A stretch of DNA of 64,000 bases from Candidatus Parcubacteria bacterium (GTDB lineage: Bacteria > Patescibacteriota > Minisyncoccia > Phycocordibacterales > JAKFXT01), in contig JAIOOV010000003.1 of assembly GCA_021414235.1 (NCBI GenBank), positions 37,560-101,559 of the forward strand. Direction: 5' to 3'. A model generated the notes under the pieces. The model was not told where the DNA came from and ran no database searches. It saw only the letters and a list, made by a program, of their open reading frames with translations. Below, in pieces: positions 1-63,767 of the stretch (position 1 is its first letter; every line of letters begins with the position of its first letter). The position numbers and the translations under genes were made by a program.

Positions 1-533
1 TTATTTTGTTTTTTTACACACTGATCGGTATTGTCCAGAGTGTAGCCACTATCGCATTCACAGCTTTTGTCAGAATTATTGTAGCTAGAATAGAGACCAA
101 ATTTCGTATGACAAACACTGTCTCCATAAGTGCATTGACCTGACGAACCGATCACATAACCATAGCTACATTTACAGGAGTTACTTAGTGAATCATAGCT
201 TGAGTTATACCCCAATTGATCATGACACATACTGTCCGCGGACACGCAGCTGTTGCCACTTACCACATAACCAAAATTACATTTACATGATGAAATACCA
301 TCGTAATAAGAGTTTGAAGGACAGGTAGGCGTAGACAATGCGGCAGAGTTGTAACTTCCATAGGACGAACCTCCACATCCACTGGTATACCCCAAGTCTC
401 CGCAGACGTAACTTCCGGTATCCGATGGGCAACTATGCCACCGATGACACCCAGATTGGTGTGCAGATACTAGGATAGGAATACAAAAAAATAACGCTAA
501 AAAGATTGCTAAATGTATTAAATTTTTACCCAT
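1..533 (-). CDS. Secreted cysteine-rich repeat protein, 3'-truncated by the window edge (>=177 aa). It has an N-terminal signal peptide and three ~40-aa modules of the form C-K/E-C-x2-G-Y...C.
   Basis: ATG is the complement of 531-533 and the reading frame runs off position 1 with no stop, which explains its absence from the ORF track. Manual translation: MGKNLIHLAIFLALFFCIPILVSA|HQSGCHRWHSCPSDTGSYVCGD...SCKCNFGYVVSGNSC...SCKCSYGYVIGSSGQC...SCECDSGYTLDNTDQC. The region is visibly AT-richer than the rest of the window. Confidence 0.55.
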   Translation of the reverse strand, partial: MGKNLIHLAIFLALFFCIPILVSAHQSGCHRWHSCPSDTGSYVCGDLGYTSGCGGSSYGSYNSAALSTPTCPSNSYYDGISSCKCNFGYVVSGNSCVSADSMCHDQLGYNSSYDSLSNSCKCSYGYVIGSSGQCTYGDSVCHTKFGLYSSYNNSDKSCECDSGYTLDNTDQCVKKQN

Positions 534-5929: not shown

Positions 5930-8089
5930 CTATTTACACTCCCTACCCGCCTGAATCTCGGTGATGTAGTAGGTCGCCTGATCTTTGTAGCTCGGTGCGA
6001 TCTCGATAAGCTTCTTGAGAGCCGCTACCGCATTCGTCCCCTGGGAAGCCTGGCAGTAGGCAGCGGCGAGCGTGAGGTAGCCTTGCGCATCGGGATTCGC
6101 TTGGATGCGGAGCTTCACCAATTCGAGCATCTTCCCGTACTGCTGCGTGTCTCCATACGCTTTCACCAGGCGGTCATCTCCTACGAACGGGGTACCGAAG
6201 CCCTCGGTAAGGACCTTGGTCGCGGTCGCATTGTCCCCCGCATAGATAAGACCCATGGCGTAGATGATGCGGGCGTCTCTAAAGCCAGGCTCGAGCTCAT
6301 ACGCCTCCTTGAAGGCAGCGACCGCTTTCGGGAAGTCCTTAGCGTTGAGATAGTTCGAACCGATTTCAAAGAGGATGGTCTGCTTGCGCGGAGAGAGTTC
6401 ATGGGCACGCTCCAGGTAGGGAACGGCTTCTTCGTGGGATCCATAGTTGTTAAGCATAGCCCCGAGGAAGAGTGGGTGGCGGGCATCGTTCGGTACTTCA
6501 CCGATCATCTTCACATATTCGGTACGGGCGAGGTCGAAGAACTCCTGCTTCACCGGAAGCGCGATATTGGCGTTCCTAAGCGCGCTAGTGCCCTGAGAGA
6601 GCTGTTCGCGGATCTCCTGGTCGCCGAAGCTTCCGTAGGCGAGCGCCTTCTTGAAGTAGCTGATATTAGTGGCCGGATCCGCCTGAGGAGAGATAGCCTT
6701 AATCAGTAGATTGCTCGCGAGTATCGGCCGCACATTGAAGAAGTAGAGTGAAGCAAACGCTGCGAGTACGATCGCAGAGACTGCCACCTGGTAGCGATAC
6801 CCTGTCTCCGGAGAAGCCGAGCGAGTATCAGAAGCCGGCAGGCTGCGCTCATGGAGATATGCGAGAAAGGCGACGAAGTAGAGATAGCTGATCAGGTTGT
6901 CGAACACAAAGAGGTTGTGCACGAAATATGCGAGAAGCATACCTGCAAGCACCGCACGTTCGGTGAACGGGAGATTGATCCTGCGGAAGAGCGCATAGAG
7001 CGCAGCGGCGAAGAGGGCGAGATAGCCGAGGAGACCGAGAGCGCCTCCGGCGATGAGCCAGTCGAAGAACACATTGTGCGTACGATCAAACCACTGCTCC
7101 TGGTCGTACATCTTGGGATCGTAGTACTTGTTGAAGACGTAATTGAAATTCTCCTGACCCCAGCCGAAGACCGGATTCTCCTTGAAGCCTTGGAAGGCCA
7201 TGTTCCAGACCAGGAAGCGGGCCTTAACCGTACCCTCCGTGAGAGAGATGGAAGCGAAGCGCTGGAGGACACTGCTCTTCTGGACAAGAGCTGTTTCCTT
7301 AAGGGCTAAGAAAGCACCTACCAAGACGAGGATGCTGACGATGGAACCGATAGCAACACGACGCAGCATGCGGTTGTCGCGTTCAAAGAGCGCGATGAGG
7401 AGCGCCGCGAAACCTACACCAGCGATAAGGCCAAGCATGGAGCCGCGGGTGCCAGTGTTGTAGAGCACGAAGATATTGAGGAGAGCGACGGCGCCATAGG
7501 CGTAGCGCACCCAGGCACCACCCTTGTGACGCAGGAAGAGGAAGGCTGCAAGGAAGATATGAAAGAGTGTGTAGACCGCGAGGTAGGTGGCATTACCGAA
7601 GGTACCATCGAGACGATCCGCGCTCTGACTGATCCCCACTGCACCAAAATACTGGAGGAATGCGTAGCCGCACATGAGCGCGTTCGCGACAAGCGACGTC
7701 TGGAACCATCTCTCCCAAAGAGCCTCACGATTAAGCACCGCTCCAAGCACCAGGAAGTAGGCGCCGAGATGGAGGAGAGTGATGTAGCCCTCCATGCGCT
7801 CGAAGTTACTCCAAAAACTCTTGGCGGGATTCTCCGCGAAGATAGTGGAGATACCCATAGTGAGGACGAGAGCGCCGAAAGAAGCCGCGATAGCGGAGAA
7901 GCGCGGACGGTACGTGACATCGCGAAGCGCGAGCACCGCCCAGAGCGCGAGCATGATCTCTATAAGAGCGCGGAAAGCGAAATTCTTACCAGTGATGTAC
8001 GGGAAGAAGAGCGAGGGAGTGACGATGAAGGAGATGAACGGTACGGCAAAGAGTCCGGTAAGGAGAGCGTAACGAAGGTAGCGATTCAT
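5930..8089 (-). CDS. Polytopic membrane protein, O-antigen-ligase (Wzy_C)-like, fused to a C-terminal TPR-repeat domain.
   Basis: About 12 predicted TM helices in the N-terminal 420 aa; C-terminal ~250 aa with TPR-like repeats (AYELEPGFRDARIIYAMGLIYAG..., SYKDQATYYITE). Confidence 0.75.
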   Translation of the reverse strand: MNRYLRYALLTGLFAVPFISFIVTPSLFFPYITGKNFAFRALIEIMLALWAVLALRDVTYRPRFSAIAASFGALVLTMGISTIFAENPAKSFWSNFERMEGYITLLHLGAYFLVLGAVLNREALWERWFQTSLVANALMCGYAFLQYFGAVGISQSADRLDGTFGNATYLAVYTLFHIFLAAFLFLRHKGGAWVRYAYGAVALLNIFVLYNTGTRGSMLGLIAGVGFAALLIALFERDNRMLRRVAIGSIVSILVLVGAFLALKETALVQKSSVLQRFASISLTEGTVKARFLVWNMAFQGFKENPVFGWGQENFNYVFNKYYDPKMYDQEQWFDRTHNVFFDWLIAGGALGLLGYLALFAAALYALFRRINLPFTERAVLAGMLLAYFVHNLFVFDNLISYLYFVAFLAYLHERSLPASDTRSASPETGYRYQVAVSAIVLAAFASLYFFNVRPILASNLLIKAISPQADPATNISYFKKALAYGSFGDQEIREQLSQGTSALRNANIALPVKQEFFDLARTEYVKMIGEVPNDARHPLFLGAMLNNYGSHEEAVPYLERAHELSPRKQTILFEIGSNYLNAKDFPKAVAAFKEAYELEPGFRDARIIYAMGLIYAGDNATATKVLTEGFGTPFVGDDRLVKAYGDTQQYGKMLELVKLRIQANPDAQGYLTLAAAYCQASQGTNAVAALKKLIEIAPSYKDQATYYITEIQAGRECK

Positions 8090-25409: not shown

Positions 25410-26622
25410 AATTTCGTCGCATGAACACGAAGAGGATACCCCAAGAGAGGAAAATGAGGGCGGAACCCGCGAGGAACGGAGCGTTCAAGCCGAGGAATCC
25501 ACCGCCAAGACCGGCGGCCACCGGGATCACTCCCTGAGCGAGCGCCATGAGGGAGCCATTGATGCCGAGTGCTGCTCCCTGCCGGTCCGCAGAGACGCTC
25601 TTTGAGACGAGCGCGCTCATGTTGGCCATAGTGAGACCTTGCGGGATAGCGAAGAACGGCATGAGCACGAAGAGGTAGAGTGCTTCGGGCATGAAGGGAT
25701 AAAGCGCGAGCATAGCCGCTACTGAGAAAATACTCACTTTCAGGATCTTCCTCTCTGCAAATTTTCCGGAGAGGATACGCAGGATCACGAGCTGAGTGAA
25801 GACGATCCAGAAGCCAGTAACAGCAAAGAAGGTGCCGACACCTTTCTCATCGAAGCCAAAGCGGTTTACCAAGAGGATGGAGATGAAGGAAGTGAAGAAA
25901 GCGAAGCCCGCCATATAGAGAAAGCTCGAGAGATATACTGGCCGGGCATCGTGATCATCGAACGCCGCCTTTATATTCTGAATCCCCTTCAGAATGTGGA
26001 AACTGCGCTTCTCAGCAGCAGGAGTGCGGCGTGTCTCCGGCAGGAAGAAATACAGGAAGAGGACGTTGAGGATGCCGAGCGCTCCTGCAAACCAGAACGG
26101 CGCAGACGCGCTATGAAAATACCCAGCGATCAATCCCCCGAGGAGCGGACCGAGGATGAAGCCGATGCCGAAAGCAGCCCCGGTGAGCCCGAAGTTCTTG
26201 GCCCGATCCTTGGGTTCGGTCACGTCCGCGATCGTCGCCTGCGCGATGCTGAAGTTCGCCCCCGCGATACCCGCCACGATACGGCTCACGATGAGGAGTG
26301 CGAGCGAAGCTGTCTCGACGCCGAAACCAAAGAGAAGCTGAGAAAGCGCAAGGACCGCGACGCCGGTAATAAGGAGTCGCTTGCGGCCATAGACGTCAGA
26401 GAGCTCGCCTAAGAGCGGCGCTGCGATGAATTGCATCAATCCGAACAAAGCAGTCACGAGCCCTGCAATGAGAAACTGCGCACTCTGCGAATAGCCCTGC
26501 AGAATAAAGTGCGAAGAAGCTGGATCGGTGAAGATGATCGGAATAATGGGAATGATCATCCCGATACCGATCATGTCGAGAAGCAGCGTGCCGAAGATAA
26601 CGGGGAGGATTCTTTTTTGCAT
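25408..26622 (-). CDS. MFS transporter (drug/H+ antiporter-like).
   Basis: 12 TM helices, MFS motif A-like region [13 protein letters not shown]. Confidence 0.9.
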
Positions 26623-26658
26623 AAATAAAAAGCCTAAAGTTCTTGATTATGCACTTTG

Positions 26659-26742
26659 TGGGCGAGGGGAGACTCGAACTCCCAATCCCTTGCGGGAACT
26701 ACGACCTGAACGTAGCGCGTCTACCAATTTCGCCACTCGCCC
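26659..26742 (-). tRNA. tRNA-Leu(CAG), type II with long variable arm; no encoded CCA.
   Basis: GGGCGAG-UG-GCGA-AAUUGGUAGA-CGCG-C-UACGU-UCAGGUC-GUAGU-long variable arm-GGGAG-UUCGAGU-CUCCC-CUCGCCC-A. Closely resembles E. coli tRNA-Leu. Confidence 0.9.
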
Positions 26743-26791
26743 ACAAAATCCACAATGACCCGCCCATACTAGCGGAAACCCCGATGTCGGA

Positions 26792-27331
26792 CTAGCCCCG
26801 ACTTTCAAAAGAACGAGAAACGAGAGAAACAGCAAGCAACATCAGAAGCGCGCTGATTGCCATCACCGGGAAGGTCACGTAACCGAATTCCTGGAAATAG
26901 ATCTTGGAGCAATCGGGGCCATTCGCAGCACACGGAAGCAGAGAGAGATTGAAGGTCTGGAGAAGCCAGTGCGCCCCAGCGAAGAAGAGGCCGAAAACGG
27001 AGAGCGGGAGCGTGTAGCGCCAGATCCCGTTATCTCTCCGAAGCCAGGCAATGAAGAAGAGGACCACCTGCGGATAGATGAAGATGCGCTGCCACCAGCA
27101 GAGCGTGCATGGCTCGAAACCGACGATCTCTGAATAGTAGAGACTCAAGACGAAGGAGAAGAGAGCGATGAGTGCCCCCCAGAGGAGCATGGGCCGCACG
27201 AGCGAGGCAGGCAGATAATCCTGCGGATATTTCCCGAATAGCATCCCCGCAAATACTGCGACAAGCGCGATGTCCGCCACAACAGTAGCGAAAGAGAGGA
27301 TCGTGGTGATGAGAGCTGCGTTCTCTGCCAT
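26792..27331 (-). CDS. Disulfide bond formation protein DsbB/BdbC family.
   Basis: Four TM helices with CTLCWWQR (CxxC...QR) motif and a second Cys pair (C...C) in the second periplasmic loop. Confidence 0.8.
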   Translation of the reverse strand: MAENAALITTILSFATVVADIALVAVFAGMLFGKYPQDYLPASLVRPMLLWGALIALFSFVLSLYYSEIVGFEPCTLCWWQRIFIYPQVVLFFIAWLRRDNGIWRYTLPLSVFGLFFAGAHWLLQTFNLSLLPCAANGPDCSKIYFQEFGYVTFPVMAISALLMLLAVSLVSRSFESRG

Positions 27332-27337
27332 AAGGAC

Positions 27338-27736
27338 TTAATTGGAAGCAGGCAGCGGACATCCTGTCTTCTCGGCAAGGATGGCAGGAGTAAGCGTCTC
27401 AGCATCCCTCGTGCCGTCCGCGAATTGCCAGGTAGGATAGCCGGTAACGCCAGCATCCGTGCAGACCTTGAGCTGCCCCTTGCCGTTCGGCGTGGAGCAC
27501 TCCACATACGGGAGAAGCTTGGCCGACTTGGCACCGAAGAGCGCCTTCTGCTCCTTGCAGTGCGGGCACCAGAACGCTCCATAGAAGGTCACCCCTTTCT
27601 CCTTGAGACACAAGGCAAGGCCGTCATACTGTCCCGGCGTGCGGGCATCGATGACGTACCAGGCTAGGAGTCCTCCGATGATGAGAACGGTGATAACGCC
27701 CCATACCCATTTAGCGGTTCGGTTCATAGGAAACAT
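27338..27736 (-). CDS. Membrane-anchored thioredoxin-fold thiol-disulfide oxidoreductase (DsbA/VKOR-Trx-like).
   Basis: N-terminal TM anchor; FYGAFWCPHCKEQKALFG active site (CPHC). Confidence 0.8.
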   Translation of the reverse strand: MFPMNRTAKWVWGVITVLIIGGLLAWYVIDARTPGQYDGLALCLKEKGVTFYGAFWCPHCKEQKALFGAKSAKLLPYVECSTPNGKGQLKVCTDAGVTGYPTWQFADGTRDAETLTPAILAEKTGCPLPASN

Positions 27737-27777
27737 CCTAACATGCCGAATGACTCCTTAGGAAAGAGCATCTCCAC

Positions 27778-28851
27778 TCAAGCCGACCATTTGGAAAATG
27801 AGCTGACAATGGTTCCGTATACCGGCAAGGAGGGCAGCCACGTACCAGGGAGCTGTACAGGAGAGGAGGTGTAATTGGCATTTCCAAAGCCTAGCTTGCC
27901 ATTCAACCCATGCCCCCAAAGCCACAATGAACCATCGGCTTTTAAAGCAGATGTATGAAAATTCGCTGCAAAAACAGAAACCCAGGTGCCCGCAAGCTGC
28001 ACTGGAGAAGAACGGTCAATAGTATCCCCGAGCCCCAAGCGACCACTCGCACCAGTGCCCCAGATCCACAGAGAACCATCGTCTTTAATGGAAGCTGTGT
28101 GATTTGCTCCAGCGGCCACCATACTCCACGAGCCAGATATCTGCACCGGAGAAGAACGGTCAGCAGTATCAGCAAGACCGAGCTTCCCAAGCGCTCCAGC
28201 TCCCCAGACCCACAGAGAGTTATCAGGTCTTAAGGCAGCACCGAACGCGCCGCCAAGTTCTACGATTTTCCATGTTCCAGCGAGCTGCGCTGGAGAGGAG
28301 CGATTCAAAGTATTTCCAAGACCCTGTCTCGCGTTAGTACCCGCACCCCACACCCACAACGTTCCGTCCGATCTCACACTTGAGCCGAAGGCGATGCCAA
28401 GAGATACGCTTTTCCAAGTCCCCGCGATCTGCACCGGAGAAGAGTGGTCTATTATGACCCCAAGACCGTGTCGTCCGCTTGTGCCATTACCCCATCCCCA
28501 GAGCGAGCCGTCTGGCTTCAGCGCGATTGAATGGGTGTTACCAAGAGAAGCGGCACTCCATGTACCAGTGATCTGCGTGGGAGAGGAGCGATCAAGAGTA
28601 TCTCCAAGACCGTTCCTCCCGTTGGCAGCAGCCCCCCATAGCCACATGGAAGCATCTGGTCGAAAACCGATGGAGTGAGCGTTACCGAGCGTTATCGCGC
28701 TCCAAGTGCCCGCAAGTTGCACTGGAGAGGAGCGGTCGGCCGTATCTCCAAGACCCATCCGGCCACTGGAACCCGCGCCCCATATAAAAAGATTGGGACC
28801 GATATCCTTAGCGGCAGCCTGAGAATTGAAGGACAACCGATCCGACAGCAT
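27778..28851 (-). CDS. RCC1/BLIP-II-type seven-bladed beta-propeller repeat protein.
   Basis: Seven copies of LW(V/L)WGxxxxGxLGLGDTxDRSSPVQ(I/L)AGTW; no evident signal peptide. Confidence 0.8.
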   Translation of the reverse strand: MLSDRLSFNSQAAAKDIGPNLFIWGAGSSGRMGLGDTADRSSPVQLAGTWSAITLGNAHSIGFRPDASMWLWGAAANGRNGLGDTLDRSSPTQITGTWSAASLGNTHSIALKPDGSLWGWGNGTSGRHGLGVIIDHSSPVQIAGTWKSVSLGIAFGSSVRSDGTLWVWGAGTNARQGLGNTLNRSSPAQLAGTWKIVELGGAFGAALRPDNSLWVWGAGALGKLGLADTADRSSPVQISGSWSMVAAGANHTASIKDDGSLWIWGTGASGRLGLGDTIDRSSPVQLAGTWVSVFAANFHTSALKADGSLWLWGHGLNGKLGFGNANYTSSPVQLPGTWLPSLPVYGTIVSSFSKWSA

Positions 28852-28915
28852 GTCTCTGAATTATTCCACCCTTTCCTGACGTCAACAACCAGAGAAGGGC
28901 AGGGGTTCCTAGGAG

Positions 28916-29329
28916 TTAAGCGAAAAAATTCTCCAAGATCTTGTGATATTCAGGAAAAAGCGTGATTTCCTTAAGATCTTCCTTCCCTATCCAGCGAACC
29001 TCAGCAATCTCCCCATCGTCAAAAGAAAACTGAGTGCTTTCATCCAGAGAACCTCGGAAGGCAATCGCCACAGTTTGAAGACCGGTCTTTCGCTTGATGA
29101 AAGTCCCTGCCCAGATTACTTCCCCTATGGTGGGTTCTACCCCTATCTCCTCGCGGATCTCCCGAGCTAGGCCAATCTCCAAAGTCTCCCCCGCATTCAA
29201 GACTCCCCCAGGAAGATCCCAGAAATCCTGGTCATGCGCGTTCCGACAGACCACTACTTTCCCGTTCGGAGAAACCAAGACCCCTTTGCACGATACCTTG
29301 CCAACAAAATGCTCTTCTCCTTCTTTCAT
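28916..29329 (-). CDS. NUDIX hydrolase (third paralog).
   Basis: GGVLNAGETLEIGLAREIREEIGVE Nudix box. The start codon abuts the 3' end of tRNA-Ile, so the true start may be an internal GTG. Confidence 0.75.
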   Translation of the reverse strand: MKEGEEHFVGKVSCKGVLVSPNGKVVVCRNAHDQDFWDLPGGVLNAGETLEIGLAREIREEIGVEPTIGEVIWAGTFIKRKTGLQTVAIAFRGSLDESTQFSFDDGEIAEVRWIGKEDLKEITLFPEYHKILENFFA

Positions 29330-29330
29330 A

Positions 29331-29405
29331 TGGTGCGAGTGGAAGGAATCGGACCTTCGACCTTTTCATTATCAGTGAAATGCTCTACCACTGAGCTACA
29401 CTCGC
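29331..29405 (-). tRNA. tRNA-Ile(GAT) with encoded CCA.
   Basis: GCGAGUG-UA-GCUC-AGUGGUAGA-GC-A-UUUCA-CUGAUAA-UGAAA-AGGUC-GAAGG-UCCGAUU-CCUUC-CACUCGC-A-CCA. The T-loop UCCGAUU is slightly non-canonical. Confidence 0.88.
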
Positions 29406-29599
29406 TTGTCGGAGGAATATAACAGAAAGGAGGGTAGGTGACAATTGAACCCAAGGAGGGATTCTTGGTTATCCACCCCTTGTGCTCAGGGCCACGGAAT
29501 GTATGATAAGCGGCGTTACCAATTTTTTAGCCTCCTTCAAACAGACGGTCACCGACGTACTGGAGACGGAACGAGCGGAGGAAAATTCTCTAAGAGGAA

Positions 29600-30844
29600 A
29601 TGGATCACCCCCCACAGAAGGAATACGAGACGGAGGTCGTCGAGTACCCTTGGATACCAAGCACTACTAAGAACCGCCAGCAGAAAAAAAGCCTCAAAAG
29701 CTCCCCTATCGCCGCGCCGGATAAACTGTCACGACTGATCGCAGAGCAGAATCCCCAGACGCCCTTCCTGGCTGTCGACCTGGATGTCATCGCCGCCAAC
29801 TACAGATCCCTCCGCACCAACCTGCCGAAAGCGGAGGTCTTTTACGCAGTGAAAGCCAACCCAGAGCCAGAGGTGGTCCGTCTCCTCGTAGGACTCGGCT
29901 CCTCCTTCGACGTCGCGAGCCCTGCCGAGATAGAGCTCGTCCTCGGAGCCGGCGCAGAGGCGAACCAGGTCTCCTACGGCAACACCATCAAGAAGGAGCG
30001 CGATATCGCCTTCGCCTACGAGCAAGGCGTCCGCCTCTTCGCCTTCGATTCCGAAGAGGAACTCCTGAAGATCGCGCGAGTGGCCCCGAGATCCAAAGTC
30101 TTTTGTCGGATACTCACCAGCAATGAAGGCGCAGAGTGGCCGCTCTCACGCAAATTCGGCTGCGAGATAAGTATGGCCCGCGATCTCCTCATCAAAGCGC
30201 AGGAACTCGGCTTAGAGCCGCACGGAGTTTCCTTCCACGTAGGCTCACAGCAGACTCGTCTGGATCAGTGGGATACGCCACTCCGCGAAGCCTCTGAACT
30301 ATTCACCTCGCTCAAAGAGGCTGGTATCACCCTCTCCATGGTCAACATCGGCGGAGGACTCCCTGCACACTACCAGAACGACATCGAACCAGTAGAGGCC
30401 TATGCCGCCGCGATCTCTGATGCGATGACGAAGTCTTTCAGGACAGAGCAGCCGCAGATGATCATCGAGCCAGGTCGCTCGCTCGTCGGCGACTCCGGCA
30501 CTATCGAGACAGAGATCGTCCTTATATCTAAGAAGTCCTACACAGACGATGTCCGCTGGGTCTACCTCGATATCGGAAAATTCGGGGGTCTCGCCGAGAC
30601 GCACGACGAAGCCATCAAATACCGCATCGAAGTGATCGGGCGCAGCGGCCCCACCGCCCCCGTGATCCTCGCCGGTCCCTCCTGCGATTCCGTAGATATC
30701 CTCTACGAGAAGTTCCAGTATCAGCTGCCGCTCTCGATGAGGGTGGGTGACCGCATCCGCATCCATGCGACCGGTGCATATACCTCGAGCTATTCCTCCG
30801 TCGGCTTCAACGGCTTTGCGCCGCTGCCCACCTATTGCATCTAG
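29600..30844 (+). CDS. PLP-dependent Orn/Lys/Arg decarboxylase (fold III, eukaryote-type ornithine-decarboxylase-like).
   Basis: FYAVKANP PLP-lysine motif, GGG loop (NIGGGLP), EPGR, GPSCDSVD substrate-binding Cys motif. Confidence 0.85.
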   Translation: MDHPPQKEYETEVVEYPWIPSTTKNRQQKKSLKSSPIAAPDKLSRLIAEQNPQTPFLAVDLDVIAANYRSLRTNLPKAEVFYAVKANPEPEVVRLLVGLGSSFDVASPAEIELVLGAGAEANQVSYGNTIKKERDIAFAYEQGVRLFAFDSEEELLKIARVAPRSKVFCRILTSNEGAEWPLSRKFGCEISMARDLLIKAQELGLEPHGVSFHVGSQQTRLDQWDTPLREASELFTSLKEAGITLSMVNIGGGLPAHYQNDIEPVEAYAAAISDAMTKSFRTEQPQMIIEPGRSLVGDSGTIETEIVLISKKSYTDDVRWVYLDIGKFGGLAETHDEAIKYRIEVIGRSGPTAPVILAGPSCDSVDILYEKFQYQLPLSMRVGDRIRIHATGAYTSSYSSVGFNGFAPLPTYCI

Positions 30845-31646: not shown

Positions 31647-31794
31647 CGAGTATTACTATCCTTTCTTTTGTTCCGTTCTAACCGTCCTTTCCCGGTACGG
31701 TGTCGGTCGCTCCAATTTAAGGTTTAAGAGCGATTACCTACTTCTTGCGAAGTATCGGCCGATCAGTCCTAGGCTTGCGCCCGGACATTTCAAT

Positions 31795-33288
31795 TTGAAT
31801 AATTCCACGAACAGCTTCCGCTACCCGTGCCTTGTTACGACTTACTCCCTGTCACCGAGCTTACCGTGATCCCGCTTGCGCGGGGCTTCGGGTATTCCCG
31901 GCTCCCTTGAGTTGACGGGCGGTGAGTACAAGACTTGAGAACGTATTCACCGCGGTATAGCTGACCCGCGATTACTAGCGATTCCGGCTTCATGGAGTCG
32001 AGTTGCAGACTCCAATCTGAATTGGGGCCACCTTTCTAAGGATTTGCTCCGGCTCGCGCCATTGCGTCCCGTTGTAGTGGCCATTGTATCACGTGTGTAG
32101 CCCAGGGTATCTAAGGGCATGCTGACCTGGCGTCATCCTCTCCTTCCTCCCCCGCAGCTACGCACCTTTCTTTTTAGAAAAGCTGCGCAATTGCGGGGGC
32201 AGTCTCGCCTGACACTTGAAACAGGCAACGAGGGTTGCGTTCGTTACCCCACTGAAGGGAACAGTTCAAACCACGAACTGACGACGGCCATGCACCACCT
32301 GTCTAGCCGCCCTTGTGAGGCGCTAAATCTTTCGGCTTAGCTTCGTCTAGATTTCTAACCCTGGTAAGGTTCTTCGTTTAACGTCGAATTAAACCACATG
32401 ATCCACCGCTTGTGCAAGTCCCCGTCTATTCCTTTGAGTTTTAACCTTGCGGTCGTACTACCCAGGCGGTTTTCTTAACGCGTTAGCTTCGCCTCTCAGA
32501 GGGTCGATTCTCCGAAAAGCCAGAAAACAAAGTTTAGGGCGTGGACTACTGGGGTATCTAATCCCATTCGCTACCCACGCTTTCGTGTTTGAGTGTCAGA
32601 AATGCGCCAGCATGCTGCCTTCGCTTTCGGTGTTCCCCATAATATCAACGGATTTCACCCCTACACTATGAGTTCCGCATGCCTCTCGCACTCTCTAGTC
32701 GTACCGTTTCCCCCGCAGATCCAGGGTTGAGCCCCGGGTTTTAACAGAAGACTAATACGACCACCTACACACCCTTTACGCCCAATGATTCCGGATAACG
32801 CTTGGGGCCTCTGTATTACCGCTCCTGCTGGCACAGAGTTAGGAGCCCCTTATTCATGAGGTACCGTCAATTACTTCTTCCCTCATAAAAGACCTTTACG
32901 TCCCGAAGGACTTCATCAATCACGCGGCGTCGCTCCGTCAGGCTTGCGCCCATTGCGGAAGATTCTCGACTGCGGCCACCCGTAGGTGTATGGACCGTAT
33001 CTCAGTTCCATCGGTGGGGGTCAGCCTCTCAGCTCCCCTAAGCGTCGTCGCCTTGGTAGGCCATTACCCTACCAACTAGCTGATACTGCGCAGGCTTCTC
33101 CAGAAGCGATAAATCTTTACTCTCGCGAGACTATCGGGAATTATCCTGCCTTTCGGCAGGTTATGCCCGACTTCTGGGTAAATTCCTACGTGTTACTACC
33201 TCGTCTGCCGTGGGTCTAACCCACTCGACTTGCATGCCTTATCCACGCCGCCAGCGTTCATCCTGAGCTAGGATCAAACTCTAATAAA
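31795..33288 (-). rRNA. 16S rRNA, about 1.5 kb, no large insertions; transcribed alone, unlinked from the 23S-5S unit.
   Basis: 5' end ...UUAUUAGAGUUUGAUCCUAGCUCAG (plus-strand complement at 33271-33287); 3' region ...AAGUCGUAACAAGG plus helix 45 with a CGGAAG loop; many universal blocks (e.g. the complements of GTATTACCGCGGCTGCTGGCAC and GGACTACCAGGGTATCTAAT on the plus strand). Confidence 0.9.
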
Positions 33289-33562
33289 AGAGATGTTGTC
33301 GCGATACAAAGCTTGCGCCTTGTATCGGGACACTATATCCGTTCGAACGGAACAAGAGAAAAGATAGTCTTTACTCATGCGTTTCGATGGTACTCAGGAC
33401 TCCTGTTGATTAGACAGGATCCGAAATCATTTTTTGGAATAATTCTACTCCAACTTGCACAAGACCAATGTCTTGTTTGGCCCCTCGCAGCCGATGAGGG
33501 CGGAGGGGCTATGTCGTAACTTTTTCAAACATCAAGCCTCACCCATTCGTGAGGCAGGAATG

Positions 33563-33670: not shown

Positions 33671-33973
33671 ATGCGCCACTTCTCCCTGGCCATCTTGGCC
33701 TTCGTGGTTCTCGGTTTCCCCCCAAGCTCCGCAGGATGGATGTCGGTCCCAGAGGTCGAGGAGTGCAGTATCTTCGAAGTCGGCAGGACCGGCGTACTGC
33801 GGGCCGAACTCAATGAGACGACGAGGAAGAGGCGGGTATGCAGGATCCCCTGCCAAGCGGATCCCGCAATTCCAGCCTTCGCCCGCCACCCCGCCATCAT
33901 CAAATTCGAGCCCAAAGAAGAAAGGTACTTCTTCAAGTGCGTACAAGAAGGGCCGATGAAGATTGAACGCTGA
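33671..33973 (+). CDS. Small secreted Cys-containing protein (100 aa), hypothetical.
   Basis: Signal peptide MRHFSLAILAFVVLGFPPSSAG; preceded by a perfect SD-like GAGGTGATCC-ATG; strong terminator downstream. Confidence 0.45.
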   Translation: MRHFSLAILAFVVLGFPPSSAGWMSVPEVEECSIFEVGRTGVLRAELNETTRKRRVCRIPCQADPAIPAFARHPAIIKFEPKEERYFFKCVQEGPMKIER

Positions 33974-40975: not shown

Positions 40976-41728
40976 TTACTCGCCCTGCGGCACTAAGAAG
41001 TAAATACGCTCTGAGACCGCTGAGGAAGTGAAGGGCGCAAGCCAGGTGAAGACCACGTGGGCAGTGCCACCGCCCGCGATACGATCGATGATCGTCTTGG
41101 ACGCACCGATAGCGTTGTCTTCTTCATCATAGATAACGCCGATAGCTTCGATGTTGCGCAAGGTACTGACACCGGGGTTAGCCACATCAGCCTCCAAGAC
41201 AAGCGCCTGTTCATCAAAGGACTGATTTCTTATCGAGAGATCCGGCGGGCTCGTCTGCGGCCGCCACGCAGGTTCACTGGTGAACTCAAGGAAAGCGCGA
41301 GAAGGGATGCGGTTCCCTACCGGGATACCACCTTCGAAGATAGGAAACTGCGCGTTCGGGAGGATGTCGGCAACTCCGCGACGCTCGGCAATGAGGATAT
41401 TCTCCGTGTCATAGAGACGCAGCCGATAGCTGACATCTGAAGCACCGAGAGCGGGATTCGGATTGAGTACAAAAGCAGCGCCCGAAGCTACTCCCGGAGC
41501 GACGAAGAAGGAGCGAGTCCAGAGTACGCGCAGAGGCTGTGTCGCCGCAGCGCATATCTTGCTGCAAGAGCCGCCGCAATCCACCCCTTGTTCGTCCTGA
41601 TTGCGCTTCCCGTCCGAACAAGAGGGCTTGGGATAGATATACCAGAAGAGCGGAGCGAGAATGGCCGCCAAGATGAGCATCCCGAAGGAGGAATAGAGGA
41701 GTTTCCGGCGCGTCGCCCAGGTAGACAT
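40976..41728 (-). CDS. Hypothetical membrane-anchored extracytoplasmic protein (250 aa), with Cys cluster CSDG...CGGSCSKIC.
   Basis: ORF track; N-terminal TM anchor; no recognisable catalytic motif. Confidence 0.55.
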   Translation of the reverse strand: MSTWATRRKLLYSSFGMLILAAILAPLFWYIYPKPSCSDGKRNQDEQGVDCGGSCSKICAAATQPLRVLWTRSFFVAPGVASGAAFVLNPNPALGASDVSYRLRLYDTENILIAERRGVADILPNAQFPIFEGGIPVGNRIPSRAFLEFTSEPAWRPQTSPPDLSIRNQSFDEQALVLEADVANPGVSTLRNIEAIGVIYDEEDNAIGASKTIIDRIAGGGTAHVVFTWLAPFTSSAVSERIYFLVPQGE

Positions 41729-41784: not shown

Positions 41785-41815
41785 ACGATCTAAAATGAGT
41801 CATTGAATGCTTTAA

Positions 41816-41929
41816 CCTGGCGACTACCTACTTTCCCCTTGCGAGTATCATCGGCACTACGGTGCTTAACGGCTCTGTTCGGAATGGGAAGAGGTGTGGC
41901 CACCGCGTTAAATCACCAGATTGAAGGAT
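41816..41929 (-). rRNA. 5S rRNA.
   Basis: Complement reads CUGGUGAUUUAACGCGGUGGCCACACC...CCGAACAGAGCCGUUAAGCACCGUAGUGCCGAUGAUACUCGCAAGGGGAAAGUAGGUAGUCGCCAGG, collinear with E. coli 5S. Confidence 0.85.
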
Positions 41930-42209: not shown

Positions 42210-45530
<3,321 letters not shown>

Positions 45531-45679
45531 GTCAGGAGATCTATGAATCACTACTTTGTTGTCTTACTTACCTGCCCCTCTCCATCGCCCTAAAAGACCC
45601 TTAAGCCCCGCTTGCGCGGGAAAAGGAGGCGGCGTGAGGGAATGAAGTTGTCAACGTTCGTGGATTCGGTCGATTCTCC

Positions 45680-58336: not shown

Positions 58337-59767
58337 CTACTGCTTCAGACCCAAGCTGTTATTCCTGCCTCCAGACATAAGTCCCCAAGCGCCCGTAACC
58401 TGCACAGGAGATGAACGATTGACGAGATCGCTTAGACCAAGCTGCCCCGTATCGTTGAGGCCCCACGCGAACATCTGACCATTGGTCCTCGATGCTACGT
58501 GATGATATTGGCCGGATCCGACAGATAACCATGTACCCGCAAGCTGAGTCGGCGAAGAGCGAGTGACGACATCGCCATGACCGAGGGCCCCCTGGGAGCC
58601 AAACCCCATAGAGAACAGAGCGCCATTCGAACGGAGAGCCAGTGAATGGTGGCTGGTGTTATGAGAGAAAACCGAAGACCAAGAAGTGTCGGCCCCCACC
58701 TGTACCGGAGACGACCGATTAATCGCATCGCCGAGTCCCATAGCCCCAAGGGCGTTATACCCTCCTATCCCCCAGAGGGTTCCGTTGCTACGCACCCCCA
58801 TGGTGAGATGTACGCCGCAAGCAACAGAAGACCAGGTGCCCCCAATCTGTACTGGGGAGGAGCGGTTTACCTTATCTCCTAAACCTAGATGCCCGAAAGT
58901 GGTATTCCCGCCGGTGCCGAACAGCTCTCCGGAAGAATTTATAAAATGCGAACGTCCGCTCCCGCCGAAGACGTCCGTCCAAACACCAGAAGATATCTGG
59001 ACGGGAGAGGATCGCTTAGCCGTATCAGAGAGGCCAAGTGCGCCAGAGGCGTTATACCCCCACCCCCAGAGCGTACCGTCAGCCTTTATACCGAGAGTAT
59101 GGTACTGCCCCGCAGACACGGCCACCCAGGTCCCCGCGACCTGCGTCGGGGAAGAGCGGCTAGCGATATCGCCAAGCCCTAGTTGTCCGTTGCCATTATC
59201 ACCCCAAGCAAACAAAGAGCCGTCCGTACGCAAAGCCAAAGCGTCATAGCGTCCTCCTGTGGCGCGTACCCAGGTGCCCGCCAATTGGACAGGAGAAGAG
59301 GCGTTGACAGTGGTAAGTCCTTGTCCCACGGCACCAACGCCTCCATGACTGCCCCAACTAAAGAGCTGACTTCCGCTTGATGAGTTTGGCATCGCTACGC
59401 TCCCTCTCCAGGTCGTGCCGTTGTCAGTCGTAAATAAAGTCAGAACATCAGTACCGATAACCGAGAGCGTCGGCGCAACAGAGTTCTGCCACTTAGTGCC
59501 ACTCATCCAGGTAGTGGTGAATCTGCCACCGTTGGTGAGGACTAAGGTGAAAGAAACATATTGAGTGGCAGAGGGAATATTAGTTATCGAGAAGGTGGTG
59601 GCTGCGGTTACCGTAGCCGTCACTACCGTGCCGAGGGAAAGATCTATGGCGGTAGCGCCGCTCACGTTGCCGAGGGCATTCTGTGTCTCCGCGTAGCCAC
59701 GCAGGTCAGCGTTGTCTAAACGCGCATTGCTCAAATCGAGACGGGAGGCAGATAGCTTGATAGCCAT
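58337..59767 (-). CDS. RCC1/BLIP-II beta-propeller protein with ~150-aa N-terminal Thr-rich beta domain (paralog of 27778..28851).
   Basis: Blades W(G/A)xNxxGxLGLGDxxxRSSP(V/T)Q; N-terminal region LDLSNARLDNADLRGY... followed by TVVTATVTAATTFSITNIP...; start uncertain (MAIK vs upstream TTG). Confidence 0.75.
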   Translation of the reverse strand: MAIKLSASRLDLSNARLDNADLRGYAETQNALGNVSGATAIDLSLGTVVTATVTAATTFSITNIPSATQYVSFTLVLTNGGRFTTTWMSGTKWQNSVAPTLSVIGTDVLTLFTTDNGTTWRGSVAMPNSSSGSQLFSWGSHGGVGAVGQGLTTVNASSPVQLAGTWVRATGGRYDALALRTDGSLFAWGDNGNGQLGLGDIASRSSPTQVAGTWVAVSAGQYHTLGIKADGTLWGWGYNASGALGLSDTAKRSSPVQISSGVWTDVFGGSGRSHFINSSGELFGTGGNTTFGHLGLGDKVNRSSPVQIGGTWSSVACGVHLTMGVRSNGTLWGIGGYNALGAMGLGDAINRSSPVQVGADTSWSSVFSHNTSHHSLALRSNGALFSMGFGSQGALGHGDVVTRSSPTQLAGTWLSVGSGQYHHVASRTNGQMFAWGLNDTGQLGLSDLVNRSSPVQVTGAWGLMSGGRNNSLGLKQ

Positions 59768-59849: not shown

Positions 59850-60113
59850 ATGAATGTAGCTCTCTACTGGACCATCGGATTTATCGCCCTCGTCATCCTC
59901 GCCGTAGGTGCCTATTTCCTCTTCTTCCGGAGCGAATCCCTCAACATCACCGGAGCGCCGCAATCTTCCAGAGTCTGCACCATGGACGTGAAGCTCTGCC
60001 CTGATGGCTCCTACGTGAGCCGTATCCCTCCCTCCTGTGCCTTTGCCGCCTGCCCCGCTCCCACGGAGGAAGCTCCGGCAGGAGGAAACCCGGATTTCGA
60101 CGTTAAAGGCTAG
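59850..60113 (+). CDS. Small membrane-anchored Cys-containing protein (87 aa), hypothetical.
   Basis: TM helix WTIGFIALVILAVGAYFLFF; Cys pattern C-x5-C...C-x4-C. Confidence 0.4.
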   Translation: MNVALYWTIGFIALVILAVGAYFLFFRSESLNITGAPQSSRVCTMDVKLCPDGSYVSRIPPSCAFAACPAPTEEAPAGGNPDFDVKG

Positions 60114-60125
60114 CCACATAATTTT

Positions 60126-60278
60126 ATGCTTATCACCATCGCCGCCCTCCTCCTCATCCTCTGGTTCCTTGGCGTCATTGGCACCTACTCCATCGGCTGG
60201 TTCGTGCACCTCCTCCTCGTGGCTGCGATCGTCATGTTCCTCATCCGGGTCATCCAAGGAGAGAATCCGTTGAAATAA
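60126..60278 (+). CDS. 50-aa two-TM small membrane protein (lmo0937-family-like).
   Basis: Manual translation MLITIAALLLILWFLGVIGTYSIGWFVHLLLVAAIVMFLIRVIQGENPLK; below the ORF-track cutoff. Confidence 0.45.
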   Translation: MLITIAALLLILWFLGVIGTYSIGWFVHLLLVAAIVMFLIRVIQGENPLK

Positions 60279-63140: not shown

Positions 63141-63245
63141 AGCCCCATGATACCAGAGGAGGGATAAGAGGGTCGCATGAGGGAGTCAAACAGGGCATAA
63201 TGGGGAGACGTTCCCTCTAGATTGCCGCTCGGGCAGTTTCCCAAC

Positions 63246-63767
63246 ATGAAAAGGACTCTTCACACCGGACCAATCCTCTTTCTCATACTCGCCATAGCCC
63301 TCCTCCTCTATCTCGGATTTGCCAAGAACCTGGAGGGCAACCTGAGCCTCCTCCCCAAGGCCGCTACCTCCCCTATCCCCGTAGTCACAGAAAAGCCCAC
63401 CCCGTCCGTCTCCATACACGGGACCCGCATTCGGGTGGATGTGGCCACCACAACAGCGGCCGTGCGCAAAGGTCTCTCCGGCCGTACCCGGCTCGAGGAG
63501 GATGAGGGCATGCTCTTCATCTTCTCCGTTCCCGATATCTACCGTTTCTGGATGCCTGACATGAATTTCCCGATCGACATCATCTGGGTACACGACGGCG
63601 TAGTGGCGGACATCAGCCGCAACGTGTCCAACGAGTTCGATCCCGCTAAGCCCGTCTTCTACTCCCCCCGCGTCAAGGTAGAGCAGGTGCTCGAGGTGAA
63701 CGCAGGCTTTGCCGCAGAGCACGGCATCGAAGTCGGAGACCCCGTGGTCCTCCGCAATATCTTTTAA
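63246..63767 (+). CDS. DUF192 (COG1430) family secreted/anchored protein.
   Basis: RKGLSGRTRLEEDEGMLFIFSVPDIYRFWMPDMNFPIDIIWV matches the DUF192 core; N-terminal TM/signal. Confidence 0.65.
   Translation: MKRTLHTGPILFLILAIALLLYLGFAKNLEGNLSLLPKAATSPIPVVTEKPTPSVSIHGTRIRVDVATTTAAVRKGLSGRTRLEEDEGMLFIFSVPDIYRFWMPDMNFPIDIIWVHDGVVADISRNVSNEFDPAKPVFYSPRVKVEQVLEVNAGFAAEHGIEVGDPVVLRNIF

Follow-up and report, generated by a model that had tools for sequence, protein, structure and literature searches.

A conserved Trx-like/DsbB gene pair and a probably unrelated RCC1-like propeller gene beside it in a Candidatus Parcubacteria genome

Introduction

The closest described counterparts of a three-gene block in the genome of a Candidatus Parcubacteria bacterium (GenBank assembly GCA_021414235.1) are the disulfide-forming systems of bacteria on the one hand and seven-bladed propellers of the RCC1 type on the other. 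The block lies in the 64,000-nucleotide stretch of contig JAIOOV010000003.1 (positions 37,560 to 101,559 of the forward strand) that was analysed here and is designated as the window. It consists of the genes for a DsbB-like membrane protein, a thioredoxin (Trx)-like protein and an RCC1-like propeller (RCC1a); a second propeller gene (RCC1b) is located elsewhere in the window. A previous interpretation of the letters alone, referred to as the sequence-only reading, had taken the three genes for an operon-like block that belongs to an oxidative-folding module.

The DsbA/DsbB and VKOR systems are the basis for proposing that the Trx-like protein oxidises exported proteins and that DsbB re-oxidises the Trx-like protein (PMC4555120). 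As in Bacillus BdbC/BdbD and E. coli DsbB/DsbA, a PF02600 membrane protein with a CxxC motif, a second cysteine pair and a conserved arginine four residues after the second cysteine is encoded beside its partner, an extracytoplasmic CxxC protein of the thioredoxin fold. The window differs from both in that the partner is a VKOR-type Trx domain anchored by a transmembrane (TM) segment, not DsbA or BdbD, and in that its DsbB has an extra N-terminal hydrophobic segment. The Trx domain is homologous over approximately 90 residues to that of the Synechococcus VKOR–thioredoxin fusion (3kp9 and 4nv2); the window domain, in contrast, is separate, has its own membrane anchor and stands beside DsbB, not VKOR.

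The propellers share a seven-bladed fold (TM-score of 0.84–0.89) and Pfam RCC1 repeats with UVR8, the RCC1-like domains of HERC1/2, and RCC1, and differ from them in their bacterial or phage origin, in a blade period of strictly 48 residues, in an identity of approximately 20–27% and in having no known partner. RCC1b also resembles phage proteins. Its N-terminal domain is similar in sequence and fold to phage tail fibres with a C-terminal knob (PHROG 9017/7760 and PF26209), and its propeller to the phage RCC1 families PHROG 7220/4219/16766, with which the knob-then-RCC1 order is shared. Unlike these proteins, RCC1b has neither a fibre shaft nor a virion-attachment part, RCC1a does not even have the knob, and both genes are surrounded by housekeeping genes in a cellular genome. 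For phage RCC1 proteins, including the eleven RCC1-like proteins of the jumbo phage phAPEC6, no function is known (PMC7247149). A literature search for RCC1 proteins in Patescibacteria returned only a study on the pili of the Saccharibacteria strain TM7x, likewise a Patescibacterium, whose minor pilin PilX2 contains an RCC1 propeller of seven blades and has no predicted classical signal (PMC11623550). PilX2 differs from RCC1a and RCC1b in being described with a pilin-like N-terminal helix, which both of them lack.

Organization of the locus

The block probably comprises two unrelated things, namely a conserved Trx–DsbB unit and RCC1a, a gene found at this spot only in this lineage that belongs to a propeller family of the phage-fibre type; RCC1a, Trx and DsbB would be neighbours by accident. 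RCC1a is not considered to be part of the Dsb unit because the propellers contain no or one cysteine, the adjacency is found in none of the related loci and is absent in syntenic relatives, the base composition of the gene at third codon positions is atypical, and it has no close orthologue.

All genes of the block are on the minus strand and the order of transcription is tRNA-Ile, NUDIX, RCC1a, Trx-like, DsbB and tRNA-Leu. The sequence-only reading had let the propeller follow the DsbB–Trx pair; this order has to be reversed, with RCC1a upstream of Trx–DsbB. The coordinates and intervals that it gave were reproduced. DsbB (26792..27331, minus strand, 179 aa) and the Trx-like protein (27338..27736, minus strand) are separated by 6 nt, and Trx and RCC1a (27778..28851, minus strand, 357 aa) by 41 nt. 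The latter gap becomes 50 nt if Trx begins at the ATG at 27727 (MNRT...), which is probably the true start judging from the homologues. RCC1a is preceded by the gene for a NUDIX hydrolase (28916..29329, minus strand; PF00293, E = 3.7e-18), which synteny indicates to be a variable accessory neighbour. The tRNA-Ile gene (GAT anticodon; 29331..29405, minus strand) bounds the variable interval, and the tRNA-Leu gene (CAG; 26658..26742, minus strand) is directly downstream of DsbB.

The Trx-like protein and DsbB

The three family assignments of the sequence-only reading (a DsbB with the CTLCWWQR motif, a CPHC protein of the thioredoxin fold, and seven-bladed RCC1 propellers) are all borne out by profile searches and a structural model. 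DsbB matched PF02600 with an E-value of 5.6e-11 and 43.5 bits against a cutoff of 22.1, which places it in the family. The best NCBIfam match was the BdbC-type family NF002849 (E = 2.8e-26), with 92.3 bits, under the curated cutoff of 124. A PDB sequence search with DsbB gave no match. A crude hydropathy analysis indicated several TM segments in addition to the extra N-terminal one. The catalytic residues are C75-x-x-C78 (within CTLCWWQR), R82, C134 and C141, and C75, C78, W79, R82, C134, C141 and P155 were invariant in all 75 distinct Patescibacteria homologues. R82 is presumably the equivalent of E. coli R48. DsbB proteins with this invariant, quinone-site-like arginine are widespread in Patescibacteria (78 related loci).

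The Trx-like protein matched the Trx-like domain of Synechococcus VKOR (PDB 3kp8, 3kp9 and 4nv2) with E-values of 8.5e-22 to 5e-20. The alignment with 3kp8 (E = 8.5e-22) spans residues 39–128 and places the WCPHC, VEC...C and GYPTW segments in register. Among 38 homologues, the invariant cysteines are C43, C57-x-x-C60 (the CPHC motif), C80, C92 and C126, which correspond to the CPHC site plus two further cysteine pairs. The protein has a single N-terminal hydrophobic TM anchor (residues 7–32 by hydropathy) and is a stand-alone protein of 129–132 aa, neither fused to nor paired with a VKOR. Assignment to the DsbA family was considered and rejected: no DSBA family profile matched at E ≤ 0.01, and the only match was to PF00085 with 22.7 bits, under the cutoff of 23.5. 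The protein would thus be a functional analogue of DsbA only. A total of 5964 homologues were detected, mostly in Patescibacteria.

To place the pair in its genomic context, 86 related loci were examined (6 by exact look-up plus 80 with one genome per species), nearly all of which were from Patescibacteria. A DsbB homologue was present in 78 of the 86 loci, or 78 of the 82 that had room for one, without exception directly after Trx and in the same orientation. Among the eight loci lacking DsbB, four stop within approximately 500 nt of Trx or contain an incomplete Trx gene. The four that have room (L033, L058, L062 and L080) carry mutually unrelated genes downstream of Trx, and in these genomes DsbB may sit elsewhere. 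In L033, which lacks DsbB at this position, the gene for a DUF192-like protein (6474–7040) separates Trx from a reductase gene; the protein is similar to one near the end of the window (see below), which is probably a coincidence. A VKOR was not noticed in any of the 86 loci, although no search aimed at VKOR was made.

The position of DsbB directly downstream of Trx in 78 loci, together with the invariant catalytic residues, identifies Trx–DsbB as a conserved two-gene unit. Judging from these sequences, the Trx-like protein and DsbB are predicted to be the standard two-gene disulfide-forming unit of Patescibacteria (Paceibacterota). In the proposed mechanism, the Trx-like protein would be tethered by one N-terminal helix with its domain facing outside, and cysteines of exported proteins would be oxidised through its CPHC site. 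The adjacent BdbC-type DsbB would then re-oxidise Trx and hand the electrons on, presumably to quinone. A literature search for DsbB or a Dsb pair in Patescibacteria found no paper on the Trx–DsbB pair in the library that was covered.

RCC1a and its insertion site

RCC1a matched PF25390 with an E-value of 3.7e-52 and contains seven PF00415 repeats and seven SSPxQ motifs with an exact period of 48 residues. Its AlphaFold2 (AF2) model, with a predicted local distance difference test (pLDDT) score of 88.9, is an RCC1-type propeller whose closest folds are those of UVR8, HERC and RCC1. The sequence-only reading had compared the propellers with BLIP-II, a comparison that does not hold, as BLIP-II was not found among the top 50 PDB fold matches of the RCC1a model and 117 of 120 members of the propeller family lack a signal peptide or any hydrophobic N-terminus. 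Matches of RCC1a to NCBIfam families (MurQ, CTX-M and a lipoprotein) had no matched stretches and were discarded as noise. No DNA-level tandem repeats were found in either propeller gene, and hence the blades are old.

In the closest relatives (loci L001 and L002), MurD, MFS, DsbB, Trx, NUDIX and OrnDC are 85–91% identical at the amino acid level; the gene order is shared with the window over at least 20 kb, across which the neighbouring proteins are 82–91% identical. The spacing between NUDIX and Trx is 23 nt in L001/L002 versus approximately 1.15 kb with RCC1a in the window. The more distant L003 and L004 (~80%) have the order OrnDC–tRNA–Trx–DsbB with neither NUDIX nor RCC1. NUDIX is therefore present in L001/L002 and absent in L003/L004, and the interval from tRNA-Ile to Trx behaves as a small variable region.

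The insertion point of RCC1a can be written as TAACTCCT, insert, TGTTAGGAT..ATG. The TGTTAGGAT motif, which forms the right-hand edge of the insertion, precedes the start codon of Trx by 7–10 nt in each of three lineages (window 27737–27760, L001 9978–10000 and L003 ~2610–2634) and is probably a ribosome-binding site (AGGA). At the boundaries of RCC1a there is only a weak near-repeat of 8–9 nt (TCCTAGGA and TCCTAAGGA), possibly by chance, and no transposase or integrase is present. The GC content at third codon positions (GC3) is 0.51 for RCC1a, 0.52 for NUDIX and 0.58 for RCC1b, versus 0.68–0.79 for the core genes (MurD, MFS, DsbB, Trx, OrnDC, RecA, reductase and SecDF), and the codon usage of RCC1a is foreign-looking.

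RCC1a has no close orthologue in the database, where its best homologue (P0147) is approximately 50% identical and has the same N-terminus (MLSDRL.FNS...). The contig that carries P0147 was obtained from the sample that also yielded L003; on it, P0147 belongs to a tandem array of four RCC1 genes, with genes for PilB, PilC and pilins shortly downstream. RCC1a appears to be a single-gene accessory element between NUDIX and Trx in this lineage only, and its history is most likely a gain in the variable interval downstream of tRNA-Ile.

According to the operon-like interpretation, RCC1a, Trx and DsbB would work together as an operon whose propeller is exported to act at the surface or as an effector and depends on the disulfide machinery for its folding or function. 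The three genes do lie on one strand, the intervening gaps measure only 41 and 6 nt, no terminator is predicted within them, and cysteine-rich exported proteins are encoded elsewhere in the window. However, RCC1a contains no cysteine and RCC1b only one, so that neither can hold an intramolecular disulfide or be a disulfide client. Hydropathy analysis detected no hydrophobic N-terminus or signal peptide in either propeller (maximum 19-residue values of 0.84 for RCC1a and 1.41 for RCC1b), in agreement with the sequence-only reading on this point, and no TM segment in RCC1a. That reading had also named in advance what would refute it, namely a lack of conservation of the adjacency among relatives. 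None of the 86 loci has an RCC1 homologue at a distance of up to 6 kb from Trx–DsbB, and RCC1a is absent from the syntenic loci L001–L004. Moreover, the closest homologue of RCC1a is at another locus and its GC3 is atypical. A functional operon of the three genes is thus highly improbable. In the reading of two unrelated elements, RCC1a may be read through into Trx–DsbB and would be neither a client nor a partner of the pair because it has no cysteine and no export signal.

RCC1b and its knob domain

RCC1b was described in the sequence-only reading as a paralogous propeller at 58337..59767 with a Thr-rich beta domain at the N-terminus that is reminiscent of phage receptor-binding N-domains. 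The gene (minus strand, 476 aa) lies between RecA and ribonucleotide reductase, and its closest homologues are at other loci. The ATG at 59767 is the correct start and is used by the homologues as well. Its seven-bladed propeller (58337..59365) matched PF25390 (E = 3.5e-54), contains seven SSPxQ motifs, and is 44% identical to RCC1a over the propeller region, which makes the two proteins true paralogues.

Residues 1–134 (59366..59767) constitute a beta-rich domain that aligned to the C-terminal ends of two PHROG families annotated as tail fiber, phrog_9017 (E = 6.3e-13) and phrog_7760 (E = 1.5e-11). The AF2 model of this domain has a pLDDT of 78 (approximately 90 in the core). It matched 209 viral models in BFVD at E ≤ 0.001 (best E = 4e-12, TM-score of 0.69), with names such as tail fibre, fibre, collagen-repeat and Mtd-N-domain proteins. 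The best PDB fold matches, to a tailspike and a capsid spike of phages, were marginal (E ~1e-3), and a PDB sequence search with the domain gave only chance-level matches. Pfam and NCBIfam searches with the domain returned nothing. A precomputed match to PF26209 (Phage_phiTE_241_C) exists for the homologue P0230 and its neighbouring gene; in our searches no PF26209 match at E ≤ 5 was obtained for RCC1b or for the proteins with precomputed PF26209 matches, apparently because the Pfam collection searched did not contain this model.

Based on these sequence and model comparisons, the N-terminal domain of RCC1b is a predicted phage fibre knob (PF26209-like), and the receptor-binding likeness that had been proposed for it is upheld. 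A profile of the knob domain detected 21590 cluster representatives. Among the 145 best new representatives, the knob is at the extreme C-terminus of a longer protein in 125, in contrast to its N-terminal position in RCC1b, and an RCC1 propeller follows the knob in one.

Knob–RCC1 proteins in phages and Patescibacteria

Wherever a knob and an RCC1 propeller share a locus, the two have the same orientation and the knob immediately precedes a propeller on its 5′ side, in one fused protein or as the gene before it. This arrangement was found in 12 viral loci from IMG/VR (L097–L100, L102, L114, L115 with three occurrences, and L116–L120) and in 9 Patescibacteria loci in addition to the window (L087–L089, L129 with three occurrences, L130, L131/L132, and L133 with three occurrences). 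L099 encodes a fibre of 789 aa that has the knob at its end and, after it, an RCC1 protein of 638 aa. In L115, the knob–RCC1 unit forms the end of baseplate-wedge- and fibre-like proteins within a fibre gene cluster.

The positions and copy numbers in Patescibacteria differ. RCC1b-like genes are located between genes for an AddA-like helicase and BipA in L130 (one copy) and L133 (three tandem copies), and a single RCC1b-like copy adjoins PheS in L131. The three tandem knob–RCC1 genes of L133 (6395–10791) are 56–60% identical to RCC1b, and the single copy of L130 occupies the same site; the copy number thus varies at a fixed site. In L087 and L129, several knob and RCC1 genes are located in loci with Tat, giant-protein and glycosylation genes. 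These two loci come from different Patescibacteria genomes and share a neighbourhood (L087 1–20378 and L129 1–17470) that contains stand-alone knob and knob–RCC1 genes, a giant (>2300 aa) LVIVD-type protein, TatC, TatA, glycosyltransferases, methyltransferases and sulfotransferases. The neighbourhood could be a surface-glycan or surface-protein locus. In L127 (1–11309), from a relative of the window organism, four tandem knob-less RCC1 genes are directly upstream of the genes for PilB (MshEN and T2SSE), PilC (T2SSF), a 647-aa N_methyl/CarboxypepD_reg protein and a pilin.

As judged from its members, the family of RCC1a and RCC1b appears to be a group of cysteine-poor proteins without signal peptides, of variable copy number and position, that is common to phages and Patescibacteria. 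Because the fusion or adjacency of knob and RCC1 recurs, the propeller is regarded as a module that acts together with the knob. Its most likely role would be that of a ligand-binding distal module of the phage-fibre type. In the cell, the propellers may serve in adhesion, possibly in association with pili, or may simply be phage-derived cargo.

The adhesion proposal can be extended to domesticated phage fibre tips that reach the cell surface or the pili by non-classical export and allow an episymbiont to recognise its host cell. The closest RCC1a homologue lies, in a relative, among the tandem RCC1 genes upstream of PilB, PilC and pilins, and PilX2 of TM7x has a propeller of the same kind and lacks the PilD signal (PMC11623550). 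The differing copy numbers and positions among relatives and the surface-related settings of L087 and L129 are also compatible with such a role. However, a pilin-like hydrophobic N-terminus and an N_methyl motif are missing from both RCC1a and RCC1b (no PF07963 match), no pilus genes adjoin either gene in the window, the adjacency to pilus genes occurs in one lineage only, and the export of the propellers is a supposition. We therefore consider such adhesins an attractive but unlikely proposal. A broader and speculative form of the proposal, to which we assign a rather low probability, is that Patescibacteria took over the distal end of phage tail fibres (knob plus RCC1) as variable, signal-less host-recognition adhesins that are displayed via type IV pili or another non-classical route.

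Alternatively, the RCC1 genes could be inert remains of phages (morons or prophage remnants) that do nothing for the cell, as might be suspected from their phage homology, low GC3, patchy distribution, and occurrence as single genes without neighbouring phage genes. Against this, neither open reading frame (ORF) is disrupted, all seven blades are present in both, the model is a confident one, related intact copies are kept as tandem arrays in several Patescibacteria genomes, and fused knob–RCC1 proteins without a fibre shaft are rare among phage-type proteins (the single case among the 145 top representatives). Inert leftovers are consequently a rather improbable explanation.

The reading of the block as a conserved Trx–DsbB unit next to an unrelated propeller gene of the phage-fibre type has to be weighed against several observations. 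RCC1a and Trx are on the same strand 41–50 nt apart, no terminator is predicted between them, and their co-transcription with DsbB, with regulatory or incidental coupling, is possible. In a promoter and terminator scan of 26500–29700, the number of sites did not exceed that in shuffled sequences, and co-transcription is not decidable from the scan; any co-transcription would be an outcome of the position of the RCC1a gene. The choice between gain and loss of RCC1a was made by parsimony over three lineages only. The viral loci were retrieved with patterns derived from RCC1b, one of them from the knob, and this sample is biased toward knob plus RCC1 pairs; some IMG/VR contigs may be misassigned cellular fragments. 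Finally, Patescibacteria are generally thought to lack quinone synthesis and respiratory chains, which bears on the electron acceptor of DsbB.

Small cysteine-containing proteins and other features of the window

The sequence-only reading had joined four small exported cysteine-containing proteins to the block. Three of these are plausible and could be clients of the Dsb pair: an exported cysteine-rich protein with a signal peptide and 17 cysteines (1..533, minus strand), which is not physically linked to the pair; an 87-aa membrane-anchored protein with 4 cysteines (59850..60113, plus strand); and a membrane-anchored 250-aa protein with a cluster of 4 cysteines after the anchor (40976..41728, minus strand). 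The fourth, the ORF at 33671–33973 (plus strand), is doubtful, as a gene was called on the opposite strand at that place in L001. Spread as they are across 60 kb, and with a Dsb system acting on the entire secretome, these proteins do not define a module. What remains of the proposed oxidative-folding module is a Trx plus DsbB unit with cysteine-rich exported clients somewhere in the genome, which is reasonable; membership of the propellers, whose cysteines number 0 and 1, is not.

A 50-aa ORF that consists almost wholly of two hydrophobic segments (60126–60278, plus strand) is located right after the gene for the 87-aa protein, between RCC1b and ribonucleotide reductase. A DUF192-like exported protein (63222–63767, plus strand; FWM..M.FPID.IW) is encoded near the class II ribonucleotide reductase.

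The rRNA genes of the window are unlinked, as is common in Patescibacteria. The 16S (31793–33289), 5S (41815–41920) and 23S (42214–45536) genes are all on the minus strand, and the 16S and 23S genes are approximately 9 kb apart separated by SecD/SecF and further protein-coding genes. At 3323 nt, the 23S match is longer than the 2925-nt model, which indicates insertions of approximately 400 nt, and no ORF of at least 110 aa is present inside the gene. A "tRNA-???" with a two-base anticodon that ARAGORN called at 44173–44246 is inside the 23S rRNA gene and is almost certainly a false call.

Conclusions

The operon-like RCC1–Dsb block should be dropped as a proposed system. What is left is of moderate interest, namely the pairing of a VKOR-type Trx with DsbB and a knob–RCC1 module common to phages and Patescibacteria. 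With an adjacency of approximately 95%, Patescibacteria appear to form disulfides by a VKOR-type Trx domain detached from VKOR together with a BdbC-type DsbB, and the pair raises the question of which electron acceptor DsbB uses in organisms thought to be without quinone synthesis. The knob-then-RCC1 order offers a testable idea, namely that phage RCC1 proteins, so far unexplained, form a distal module of the fibre, and makes knob–RCC1 proteins candidate attachment proteins in episymbiotic bacteria. If Patescibacteria have indeed taken over such fibre tips, the copy number and position of knob–RCC1 genes would help to set which host cells they can attach to.

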